Source of the DNA: Escherichia coli
GTDB taxonomy: Bacteria > Pseudomonadota > Gammaproteobacteria > Enterobacterales > Enterobacteriaceae
Strand: one strand, 5' to 3'
Length of the DNA stretch: 3,540 nt
Assembly: GCF_003334255.1 (NCBI RefSeq)
Contig: NZ_QOWU01000119.1
The notes under the pieces are model-generated. The model saw only the letters and a list, made by a program, of their open reading frames with translations. It was not told the DNA's origin and made no database searches. Shown one piece after another: positions 1-3,540 of the stretch. The stretch's first letter is position 1. Every line of letters starts with the position of its first letter. The position numbers were made by a program, and so were the translations under genes.

Positions 1-243
1 CATAAACCGGTGCAGTACTATCCCGGGAAACATCCGTGCGAAAAACCGGCAGAAATGCTGCAGCAGATAATCAGCGCGAGCAGTCGTCCGGGTGACCTGG
101 TTGCAGATTTCTTCATGGGGTCAGGTTCGACAGTCAAAGCAGCGATAGCGCTGGGACGTCGTGCAACTGGCGTTGAGCTGGAGACTGAGCGTTTTGAGCA
201 GACGGTCAGGGAAGTTCAGAATTTAGTCAGTCAGAACGGATGA
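1..243 (+). CDS. DNA methyltransferase (N6-adenine/N4-cytosine type), C-terminal fragment; 5' end lies upstream of the window
   Basis: Frame 1 is open from base 1 to the TGA at 241-243. The translation ...HPCEKPAEMLQQIISASSRPGDLVADFFMGSGSTVKAA... carries the HPxxKP motif followed by the FxGxG AdoMet-binding motif (D-x-F-M-G-S-G-S-T) typical of this methylase family. The ORF-track start at 10 is an internal GTG, not the true start. Confidence 0.8.
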   Translation, partial: HKPVQYYPGKHPCEKPAEMLQQIISASSRPGDLVADFFMGSGSTVKAAIALGRRATGVELETERFEQTVREVQNLVSQNG

Positions 244-245
244 TA

Positions 246-274
246 TTGCAGAATTAGTTACGTACCGTTATTAT
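246..274 (+). promoter_or_regulatory. Candidate sigma70 promoter for the tRNA pair
   Basis: TTGCAG at 246-251 (3/6 to TTGACA), 17-bp spacer, TATTAT at 269-274 (5/6 to TATAAT). The predicted start (about 281) is just upstream of the first tRNA at 284. Pattern match only. Confidence 0.3.
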
Positions 275-283
275 CCTATGCCC

Positions 284-359
284 GGCCCTTTAGCTCAGTG
301 GTGAGAGCGAGCGACTCATAATCGCCAGGTCGCTGGTTCAAATCCAGCAAGGGCCACCA
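284..359 (+). tRNA. ileZ: tRNA with anticodon CAU, tRNA-Ile2 (lysidine, AUA-decoding) type; 76 nt with encoded CCA
   Basis: Manual cloverleaf: acceptor GGCCCTT (284-290) pairs with AAGGGCC (349-355), discriminator A356, CCA 357-359. D-arm GCTC/GAGC; anticodon loop CTCATAA with CAT at 317-319; T-loop TTCAAAT. The sequence is close to E. coli ileX as I remember it. The symbol ileZ is by analogy with Stx-phage tRNAs and is tentative; from the anticodon alone an elongator tRNA-Met cannot be excluded. Confidence 0.8.
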
Positions 360-368
360 TATCACATA

Positions 369-445
369 CCGCCATTAGCTCATCGGGATAGAGCGCCAGC
401 CTTCGAAGCTGGCTGCGCGGGGTTCGAGTCCTCGATGGCGGTCCA
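369..445 (+). tRNA. tRNA-Arg, anticodon UCG; 77 nt with encoded CCA
   Basis: Manual cloverleaf: acceptor CCGCCAT (369-375) pairs with ATGGCGG (435-441), discriminator T442, CCA 443-445. U8 present; D-arm GCTC/GAGC with ATCGGGATA loop; anticodon stem CCAGC/GCTGG; loop CTTCGAA with TCG at 403-405; 5-nt variable loop; T-stem CGGGG/CCTCG (one G-U); T-loop TTCGAGT. Confidence 0.75.
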
Positions 446-501
446 TTATCTGCATTATGCGTTGTTGGTTCTGATGAGTGAATCATTGTCTTTTGAGCAA
501 C

Positions 502-523
502 AGGCTATCATATAAGATAGCCT
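502..523. repeat. Perfect 8-bp inverted repeat (hairpin) in the tRNA-to-ORF spacer
   Basis: AGGCTATC (502-509), 6-nt loop atataa, GATAGCCT (516-523). It is not followed by a T-run, so it is not a canonical terminator; it could be an RNA processing structure or a protein-binding site. Confidence 0.5.
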
Positions 524-723
524 CAGACTTCCTTGTTTATTCTCGCCGGATGCTTCGTAGATATTTGCAGGCATCTGTATGCAGGGGTATTATTGCGGCA
601 TATATCATCCGGAAAAATAAAAACTACATGCTGATCCGGAGATGATAGTTACAAGTCCTCCCGGATCCCGCATATTTACTATATTTTATAGATAATTGTT
701 CTTGTTAATATGGAGATGGATAA

Positions 724-1175: not shown

Positions 1176-1328
1176 TCCTGATGATTTTGGGGCGCTGGAA
1201 AGATATTGTGCTGTGAAGTGTTAAATTCCTCACAATTCAGTAAGTTGACAGTTGCCTGTCAGACTGGGCATTTGTTAAAAAAATTTCGCATGGTGAATCC
1301 CCCTGAGCGGAGGGGCGACTGGTGACGG

Positions 1329-1334
1329 TATAAT
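1329..1334 (+). promoter_or_regulatory. Consensus -10 hexamer TATAAT without a convincing -35
   Basis: TATAAT at 1329-1334. No good TTGACA-like hexamer lies 16-18 bp upstream (AGCGGA at 17 bp). The consensus TTGACA at 1245-1250 is too far away to pair with it and has no good -10 of its own. Confidence 0.25.
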
Positions 1335-1340
1335 CTCTGA

Positions 1341-1462
1341 TTATCAAAACGAGAATGACGCGGGTTTAGTGGCACCGGGCTGAACTCACCGGGAGGCACC
1401 CGGCACCATGTTCATGGTGATACAGAAATGCGGCTTCAGCCCCTCTCCGGAGGGGCTTTCTT
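1341..1462 (+). ncRNA. Hypothetical small structured RNA of about 120 nt, running from the candidate -10 to the intrinsic terminator
   Basis: There is no credible ORF in this interval. Consecutive hairpins: CCGGG-aggca-CCCGG (1389-1403), perfect palindrome CACCATG-tt-CATGGTG (1404-1419), and the terminator hairpin at 1438-1457 followed by a T-rich tract. Purely structural inference. Confidence 0.25.
1438..1462 (+). terminator. Rho-independent terminator, + strand
   Basis: AGCCCCTC (1438-1445), loop TCCG, GAGGGGCT (1450-1457): an 8-bp GC-rich stem followed by TTCTTAT. Confidence 0.6.
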
Positions 1463-1468
1463 ATGGAC

Positions 1469-1689: not shown

Positions 1690-3540
1690 ATGACATTTAA
1701 ACACTACGATGTGGTCAGGGCGGCGTCGCCGTCAGACCTTGCGGAGCGACTGACACAAAAACTGAAGGAGGGGTGGCAGCCATTTGGCAGCCCTGTGGCC
1801 ATCACGCCTTATACCCTGATGCAGGCCATTGCGGCGGAAGGTGATGTCACCACACCGGTGGTGGTGCAACCGTCGGGTGATGGTGGCGCTGTTATCAGCA
1901 CCACCAGCGAACCGGAATATTACTTTGTCATTGCGCTGGCCGGGCAGTCCAACTCGATGTCTTTTGGCGAGGGGCTGCCGCTGCCGGAGACATATGACCG
2001 TCCGGACCCGCGTATTAAACAGCTGGCGCGTCGCAGTACGGTGACGCCGGGTGGTGCCGCCTGTAAATATAACGACATCATTCCGGCAGACCACTGTCTG
2101 CATGATGTGCAGGATATGAGTAACCTGAATCATCCTCATGCAGACCTGAGTAAGGGACAGTACGGTTGTGTGGGGCATGCTCTGCATGTTGCCAAAAAGC
2201 TGCTGCCGTTTATGCCTGCGAATGCGGGTATCCTTCTTGTTCCATGTGGCCGTGGCGATTCGGGATTTACTGCGGGGGCCGAGGGGGCGTTTAACGAAGC
2301 GTCGGGAGCGACCGCAGGCTCGTCCCTGTGGGGGGCGGATAAACCGCTGTATCATGACCTGGTCAGCAGAACCCGTGCGGCCCTGAAGAAAAATCCGAAG
2401 AACGTGCTGTTATCAGTGATCTGGATGCAGGGAGAAAAAGATGTCAGTTCGGGGAGACATGCAGAACACAATGCGCTTTTCCTTGCCATGGTAAATCAGT
2501 TCCGTACGGAACTGGCAGATGTGGCAGAGCAGTGTACTGGCGGGACAACGGCCAGCGTCCCGTGGATTTGCGGTGATACCACGTACTACTGGAAGGAAAG
2601 GTATGCAGCGCCGTATGAGGCGGTTTACGGTGGGTATAAAGGCAAAGCTGCGCAGAATATTCACTTTGTGCCGTTGATGACGGATGAGCATGGTGTGAAT
2701 GTGCCGACAAACGAGCCGTCAGAAGATCCGGACATTATCCCGGCGGGATACTATGGCGCTGCGTCACGCACTGCCAGTAACTGGACGTCAGCCGATCGTA
2801 AAACGCACTTCAGTTCATGGGCGCGAAGAGGCCTTGTTTCAGACCGCCTGGCAGGTGCCATTTTGCAGTACGCCGGGCGGACATTATCGTTCCTTACCGG
2901 GCAGAGCGCACCGCAGTCGGGTGGTACAACTCCCGGTGATGATGTCAGTCCGGGGGTACCGGGTGTTGAGAAACCGCAGGATGGCGGTGTTGCTGGTACT
3001 GGTCATGATGAGGCCGTGAGCAGTACCAGGACGGTGGCTGAATATGATGCGAACAGTGGAAATGGTGTATGGACAGAGCAGCAGTGGGGGGCTGCCGGTG
3101 GCAAAGGCACTGTGACTGATGACGGTGGACGGAAAGCGCTACGACTGGAAAAACAGCCCGGTAAACTGACGTCCTGGAAAATGTTCCGTACTGTTGCAGT
3201 GGAGGAGGCAAAAAATCTTCTCAGCAAGGGGGGTGAAATTGCCGTACGGTTCAAAATTCCGGATGGAAGCGAACTGGTGAACGGACAGTTTGTCTTTGGT
3301 CTCTACTGGCCGGTGTCGCAGTGGGCGTCAGGCGCGGCAGCAAACAGTATGCTGGCATCATTCTTCCTTCAGACGGATGCATCAAATCTGAATCTTATGC
3401 ACCACAAGGGCACGTCGAATGCACAACTGGGTACATTTGGTGCGTTTGACCATAACTGGCATACGGTTGTTTTCCGCTTTGCGGGAAATAACAGCGAAAG
3501 AGTCGTTCCGGTGATTGATGGTACAGAGCAGACGGCGTTT
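1690..3540 (+). CDS. nanS-p: Prophage-type sialate (9-O-acetyl-N-acetylneuraminate) O-acetylesterase, NanS-p family; 5' partial, continues past the window end
   Basis: ATG at 1690 with a strong SD. I translated all 617 codons to the window end with no stop. The N-terminus MTFKHYDVVRAASPSDLAERLTQKLKEGWQPFG... matches the DUF1737-type N-terminal domain. It is followed by the SGNH/SASA esterase block YYFVIALAGQSNSMSFGEGLPLPETYDRPDPRIKQLAR with the catalytic GQSN serine motif, as in E. coli NanS (YjhS) and the Stx-phage paralogues. A Gly/Pro/Thr-rich linker (about 2890-3010) and a further C-terminal domain follow. Confidence 0.9.
   Translation, partial: MTFKHYDVVRAASPSDLAERLTQKLKEGWQPFGSPVAITPYTLMQAIAAEGDVTTPVVVQPSGDGGAVISTTSEPEYYFVIALAGQSNSMSFGEGLPLPETYDRPDPRIKQLARRSTVTPGGAACKYNDIIPADHCLHDVQDMSNLNHPHADLSKGQYGCVGHALHVAKKLLPFMPANAGILLVPCGRGDSGFTAGAEGAFNEASGATAGSSLWGADKPLYHDLVSRTRAALKKNPKNVLLSVIWMQGEKDVSSGRHAEHNALFLAMVNQFRTELADVAEQCTGGTTASVPWICGDTTYYWKERYAAPYEAVYGGYKGKAAQNIHFVPLMTDEHGVNVPTNEPSEDPDIIPAGYYGAASRTASNWTSADRKTHFSSWARRGLVSDRLAGAILQYAGRTLSFLTGQSAPQSGGTTPGDDVSPGVPGVEKPQDGGVAGTGHDEAVSSTRTVAEYDANSGNGVWTEQQWGAAGGKGTVTDDGGRKALRLEKQPGKLTSWKMFRTVAVEEAKNLLSKGGEIAVRFKIPDGSELVNGQFVFGLYWPVSQWASGAAANSMLASFFLQTDASNLNLMHHKGTSNAQLGTFGAFDHNWHTVVFRFAGNNSERVVPVIDGTEQTAF

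Follow-up and report, generated by a model that had tools for sequence, protein, structure and literature searches.

A probably orphan M.EcoGII-type adenine methyltransferase gene in the predicted late operon of an Escherichia coli prophage

M.EcoGII, encoded in a prophage of E. coli O104:H4 C227-11 (GenBank EGT69837.1), methylates adenine whatever the surrounding sequence, modifying as much as 99% of dA in vitro and 86% in vivo, and blocks 12 of 12 six-base and six four-base adenine-sensitive restriction enzymes tested (PMC5778455). Single-stranded DNA is modified nearly as well as duplex DNA, and >32% of rA was methylated in an in vitro transcript (PMC5778455); initial rates were ~90-fold lower on RNA than on DNA (0.12 versus 11.12, respectively; PMC11551740, Table S3). 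The enzyme is silent in the lysogen, and its constitutive expression yields slow-growing, unstable clones (PMC5778455). M.EcoGI is identical to M.EcoGII at 333 of 349 residues (PMC5778455), and both have been termed orphans (PMC6602927). Homologues from O111 STEC (~93%) are predicted to be nonspecific and leave no motif in lysogen methylomes (PMC6602927). In Stx phages, the late promoter pR' is constitutive, its transcript ends at tR' during lysogeny, and the late genes need antitermination by Q (PMC7547250); a paper on the pR' regions of Stx prophages makes no mention of a methylase or of tRNAs (PMC6266700). Here, we describe a methylase gene of this kind whose 3' end opens a stretch of E. 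coli DNA of 3,540 nucleotides (the window), together with its full-length counterparts in complete genomes.

Identity and intactness of the methylase gene

An ORF already open at the window edge runs in frame 1 to a TGA codon (ORF translation; Table 1) and encodes the 80 residues HKPVQYYPGKHPCEKPAEMLQQIISASSRPGDLVADFFMGSGSTVKAAIALGRRATGVELETERFEQTVREVQNLVSQNG. This fragment matches Pfam N6_N4_Mtase (PF01555) at model positions 160 to 220 of 221 (E = 1.5e-21). Its FMGSG loop aligns with the FMGSGT motif of solved β-class methyltransferases, and a C-terminal FxGxG has also been described for M.EcoGII (PMC5778455). Closer to the start of the fragment, GKHPCEKP pairs with DHPTQKP in phmmer alignments to PDB chains 9c3u and 8urk, the counterpart of HPCEKP in solved β-class methyltransferases being HPTQKP. 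An antisense ORF of 39 amino acids (aa) at positions 18 to 137 was without support and was set aside. The window holds 23% of the methylase gene, which starts ~816 bp 5' of it; the part outside includes the catalytic DPPY motif.

Table 1. Features of the methylase gene end and tRNA junction in the window, and of the region upstream in the prophage of strain EC2 (L001)
Feature	Position	Strand	Basis
Methylase 3' end, codons 273 to 352 and TGA stop	window 1-243	+	ORF, Pfam PF01555, full-length homologue
HPCEKP segment, residues 283 to 288	window 31-48	+	phmmer alignment to 9c3u and 8urk
Motif I FxGxG (F-M-G-S-G), residues 310 to 314, S-adenosylmethionine-binding loop	window 112-126	+	translation, alignment
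Spacer, 40 bp, methylase stop to first tRNA	window 244-283	+	four-locus junction alignment, promoter/terminator scan
tRNA, anticodon CAT	window 284-359	+	ARAGORN, Rfam
tRNA-Arg, anticodon TCG (argN in Stx2 phage records)	window 369-445	+	ARAGORN, Rfam
Q-like antiterminator	L001 11789-12610	same as methylase	phrog_127, E = 2e-113
65-aa ORF	L001 12837-13034	same as methylase	annotation
Methylase	L001 13185-14243	late strand	WP_016232051.1

Complete copies of the gene were available in other genomes. Sixteen complete E. coli chromosomes match window positions 1 to 720 at 100% identity, and the closest match to the whole window has 97.7% identity. In strain EC2, the methylase ORF has 1,059 bp (352 codons) and bears the annotation DNA methyltransferase, and the ORF is complete and unflagged in both of the annotated loci that were read among these 16 (L001 and L003). 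The full-length L001 protein covers model positions 1 to 219 of the 221 of PF01555 (E = 4.7e-43). It carries DPPY at residues 35 to 38 and FMGSG at residues 310 to 314, and the motif order of DPPY, recognition domain, and FxGxG is that of the β class, with DPPY read from L001, which is identical to the window over positions 1 to 720. Between the core motifs lies a central region of ~130 residues with weak helix-turn-helix character (a weak HTH_3 match at residues 167 to 195). The initial annotation had called the gene a methyltransferase, a call that a frameshift upstream or a motif order unfit for a DNA methyltransferase would have undone. Membership in the β-class amino-methyltransferases is confirmed by PF01555, the protein is at least 94% identical to M.EcoGII, and neither a frameshift nor a misfit motif order was seen in the identical loci. 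From these loci, we infer that the window's own gene is intact upstream of base 1 as well. In strain G1/2 (L003 18627-21528), the genes for the terminase large subunit and the major capsid protein are frameshifted while the methylase ORF is intact; the gene therefore persists in at least one defective prophage.

Over its full length, the protein is identical to M.EcoGII at 328 of 349 residues, with two 1-residue gaps, and this figure of 94% is approximate because the M.EcoGII sequence (PMC11551740, Table S1) was machine-read from a PDF with visible errors ("NHHIWA," "GRRRAIG," and "TKVPQYY" are suspect readings); the real identity is probably a little higher. Within the recognition-domain region (residues 160 to 237), the two proteins differ at 5 of 78 positions. 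The closest phage match is the methylase of Escherichia phage 1720a-02 (95% identical as protein and 97% at the nucleotide level), which has itself been named as very similar to M.EcoGII (Murray et al. 2018, PMC5778455). A tblastn search of the phage collection with M.EcoGII returned no identical copy, and the top matches, at 93 to 94%, were all from Stx2 phages. We regard the assignment to the M.EcoGII/M.EcoGI family as close to certain.

The gene also appears to stand without a partner nuclease. In a survey of annotated features, no restriction endonuclease was found in 28.7 kb (L001) and 21.5 kb (L003) of E. coli prophage or in the corresponding regions of two Stx2 phages. Nuclease-like genes annotated nearby were limited to RusA, an exonuclease of the early region, and an HNH gene next to those for terminase. 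The earlier suggestion that the methylase is probably an orphan agrees with these annotations and with the published description of the family (PMC6602927).

Late-operon setting of the methylase

The methylase is located in a prophage in both L001 and L003. In L001, the genes for RusA, a Q-like antiterminator, a 65-aa ORF, the methylase, tRNA-Ile, and tRNA-Arg follow one another on one strand, and the same strand continues with a TolA-C-terminal-like lipoprotein, a NanS-p-type SASA esterase, holin, lysozyme, spanin, and then terminase. The methylase is thus the second ORF downstream of a Q-type antiterminator gene, on the late strand. A scan with the sigma-70 consensus gave no promoter on the + strand between Q and the methylase, and pR' was then located by alignment with lambda (NC_001416). 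The sequence 3' of the Q stop contains, in order, TTGATT, 16 nucleotides (nt), TGgTAAATT, TGCCCT, and AACGATGGG, of which the -10 TAAATT and the AACGATGGG element match lambda pR' exactly, in spacing as well as in sequence. In lambda, AACGAT at +1 to +6 of the pR' transcript is, as we understand it, the sigma-dependent pause signal for Q engagement. By this homology, transcription would start near L001 12650, ~535 bp before the methylase start and ~1,350 bp upstream of window base 1. The consensus scan missed this candidate pR', whose match to the sigma-70 consensus is only 8 of 12.

Two hairpin-plus-T-run terminators are predicted between pR' and the methylase (L001 12693-12714 and 13021-13044), and none is predicted on the + strand from the methylase to window position 1438. 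A second copy of TGTGGTAAAT at L001 13046-13055, 3' of the 65-aa ORF, was considered as a second promoter but rejected, since the -10 would read TAAATG, the AACGAT element is missing, and one repeat of a 10-mer in 2.6 kb is no more than chance would give. A weak internal promoter before the methylase is conceivable.

This arrangement suggests late expression of the methylase, in one transcript with the tRNAs and the cargo gene. The presence of two terminators, and the failure to find a consensus promoter between Q and the gene, suggest that the methylase would be silent in the lysogen. Its position as a late gene would explain the lysogen silence published for the family. Co-transcription with the late region had been proposed in the initial annotation, on the ground that the methylase adjoins the cargo slot. 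The anatomy supports the proposal itself, with the gene on the late strand behind Q, pR', and two terminators and no terminator predicted before the tRNAs; the reason, however, lies in the position behind pR' and tR' rather than in closeness to the cargo slot.

Several features of the leader were also recorded. The 65-aa ORF always accompanies the methylase, whether in Stx2 phages or in prophages of E. coli; it belongs to phrog_331 and shows weak winged-helix similarity (TrmB, E = 0.0013; MarR_2, E = 0.017), and its stop codon sits within the stem of a terminator hairpin. The antiterminator beside pR' has 273 aa and is unlike lambda Q in length, despite the lambda-identical -10 and AACGATGGG elements, and it has a weak match to a DnaJ-type zinc finger (TIGR02349, residues 163 to 218, E = 3.3e-05). 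The RNA from pR' to the first terminator is predicted to be ~65 nt long, versus 258 nt reported for Stx phages (PMC7547250).

The tRNA junction and the block shared with Stx2 phages

ARAGORN and Rfam place the first tRNA 40 bp beyond the methylase stop (Table 1), exactly the distance first noted. No promoter or terminator is predicted in this spacer. The tRNA with anticodon CAT is named differently by different sources: ARAGORN calls it Met, and RefSeq has tRNA-Ile for most of the genomes listed but tRNA-Met for H55 and H56. In Stx2 phage records it is ileZ, a lysidine-type reader of AUA. In the methylase, ATA accounts for 5 of 15 Ile codons (14 per 1,000), and in the TolA-like ORF it reaches 28 per 1,000; we presume both values to be above the E. 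coli average. The junction is common in the species, since a 261-bp probe (window 100 to 360) was covered over at least 80% of its length in 1,863 of 5,426 complete E. coli genomes, about a third.

The same arrangement is found in Stx2 phages (1720a-02, KF030445; Stx2a_1447, AP012536; phiP27), which carry the 65-aa ORF, the 352-aa methylase, the spacer, ileZ, and argN. Their spacer has the same length and is identical at 37 of 40 bases. The likeness is confined to one block, which runs at 95 to 96% identity from L001 12693, exactly at the first terminator hairpin, to L001 14466 (window position 466). On either side of it the loci part: the upstream segment with Q and pR' is of a different type in the Stx2 phages than in the L001 prophage, and the downstream cargo differs too, with a third tRNA (argO) and stx2AB next in the Stx2 phages and a TolA-C-terminal-like lipoprotein gene in the cargo position here. 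The tR', 65-aa ORF, methylase, ileZ, and argN block is therefore a fixed mosaic unit of the late-operon leader. The end of the block at window position 466 marks the start of a variable cargo slot, filled by stx2AB in Stx phages and by the TolA-like lipoprotein gene in this prophage.

The remainder of the window contains further features. The 142-aa ORF in place of argO and stx2AB (724 to 1152, + strand) has a lipoprotein-like signal peptide (LTTGC), and over its last 90 residues it resembles the TolA C-terminal domain (TIGR02794, 75.9 bits with a cut-off of 59.45; NF007065, E = 1.7e-29); it is named TolA in RefSeq and falls in phrog_5772, a PHROGs family of unknown function. An Rfam match to the STnc100 small RNA (sRNA) at 1259 to 1468 (+ strand) scores 165.6 bits, well over the gathering score. 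A match to AsxR, the "anti-stx2" sRNA, a short way downstream at L001 15473-15525 (- strand) scores 63 bits, exactly the gathering score; within the window itself, AsxR falls below the Rfam gathering threshold. Terminator-like hairpins on the + strand of L001 are equivalent to approximately window positions 1438 to 1457 and 1549 to 1572. A long ORF starts at ATG 1690 (+ strand) and runs past the window end at 3540. In matching genomes it is a SASA family carbohydrate esterase, which we take to be of the NanS-p type, although three genomes label this position "DUF6645 domain-containing protein." Positions 1690 to 3540 are the part of the window that diverges most from its best database matches (96 to 98% overall versus 100% for positions 1 to 720).

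Proposed role and comparison with known systems

Taken as a whole, we think it likely that the window carries an intact orphan m6A gene of the M.EcoGII type that is silent in the lysogen, is expressed late in dependence on Q, and protects progeny DNA. In the lysogen, transcripts from pR' would end at the terminators and no enzyme would be made. Upon induction, Q-modified RNA polymerase would pass both terminators and produce a single transcript, from the 65-aa ORF and the methylase through the tRNAs to the remaining late genes, and RNase P together with 3' processing of the tRNAs would sever the methylase mRNA from the downstream message. The enzyme, probably a dimer, would then methylate adenines of replicating and packaged phage DNA with little or no sequence preference, shielding progeny genomes from the many m6A-blocked Type I, II, and III restriction systems in the next host. 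Confinement of expression to the terminal lytic phase would spare the growing cell the harm of methylation. In the literature, we found no paper on hypermethylated virion DNA of such phages and none on reduced plating on restricting hosts, or another deletion phenotype, after loss of the methylase.

A different role is suggested by orphan phage methyltransferases with regulatory functions, which do exist (reviewed in PMC12707154). Like Dam or CcrM, the methylase could modify adenine within a specific sequence, be active in the lysogen, and regulate host or prophage genes epigenetically. The helix-turn-helix character of the central domain would suit such a role, as would the five differences from M.EcoGII in the recognition region, given which some shift in specificity relative to M.EcoGII is conceivable. 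However, nonspecific methylation has been shown for M.EcoGII, to which the protein is at least 94% identical, homologues leave no methylation motif in lysogen methylomes (PMC6602927), two terminators stand between the gene and the only recognizable upstream promoter, and clones with constitutive M.EcoGII grow slowly and are unstable (PMC5778455). We therefore consider this regulatory role quite unlikely. Of the two functions first put forward for the gene, anti-restriction or epigenetic, anti-restriction is favoured by the resistance of M.EcoGII-modified DNA to many restriction enzymes (PMC5778455), and the silence of the homologues in lysogens makes a standing epigenetic role there unlikely (PMC5778455, PMC6602927, PMC12707154).

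It is also very unlikely that the window's copy has been inactivated by a truncation or frameshift upstream of base 1 and survives only as a remnant in a decaying cryptic prophage. The window covers only the last 80 codons, and the frameshifted terminase and capsid genes of strain G1/2 indicate decay in a related prophage; nevertheless, the frame and the conserved motifs are open and unchanged within the window, and its first 720 bases are identical in 16 genomes, with the complete 352-codon gene present in both L001 and L003. Finally, the activity of M.EcoGII on single-stranded DNA and on transcripts (PMC5778455), together with the strong conservation of the methylase-tRNA junction down to its spacer length, could point to RNA or single-stranded DNA (the late transcript, the tRNAs, or replication and packaging intermediates) as the main late-phase substrate and to closeness to the tRNAs as a functional link, but the far lower activity on RNA (PMC11551740, Table S3) and the equally good explanation of the conserved junction by inheritance of one mosaic block make this the least credible account. 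There is correspondingly only a very slim chance that a conserved coupling of m6A writer and tRNAs is functional, with the late enzyme modifying RNA or single-stranded nucleic acids as well in the lytic phase; if true, this could alter translation, the stability of RNA, or host-defence recognition.

Returning to late protection of progeny DNA, we note that the methylase belongs to an already known, biochemically characterised family and occupies its usual, widely annotated position. RefSeq and many records of Stx2 phages already list the gene, and a place upstream of ileZ and argN is standard for this prophage group. If the methylase is part of the late operon, a lysogen methylome would therefore not reveal it and would probably show nothing of its activity; DNA from induced cells or virions would be the informative sample.

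The closest described enzyme, M.EcoGII, shares with the present methylase the β-class motif order, the prophage location, and the lack of a partner restriction enzyme. The two differ in length (352 aa here versus 349 aa), in the C-terminal tail (...NLVSQNG here versus ...DLIV), and at ~20 substitutions in all. More distant are the β-class enzymes of solved structure. No solved structure of M.EcoGII or a near relative was found in the copy of the PDB searched, and the top matches cover core segments only: M.RsrI (1eg2), CcrM (6pbd), M.MboIIA (1g60), and DpnA (5hek) share the Rossmann core, the N-terminal DPPY, and the C-terminal FxGxG, and solved β-class relatives align only over approximately residues 8 to 142 and 269 to 347 (E = 1e-14 to 1e-25). 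The central domain of ~130 residues has no counterpart in these four enzymes, all of which are sequence specific. Phage Mu Mom, whose modification we take to be acetamido-adenine, is unrelated to the methylase in both sequence and chemistry. Mom and M.EcoGII have been grouped as systems of broad modification that act only on induction, are silent in the lysogen, and are toxic if artificially expressed (PMC12707154). Non-specific adenine methyltransferases from other temperate phages belong to this functional class too. The likeness to Mom is thus one of strategy, not of family.
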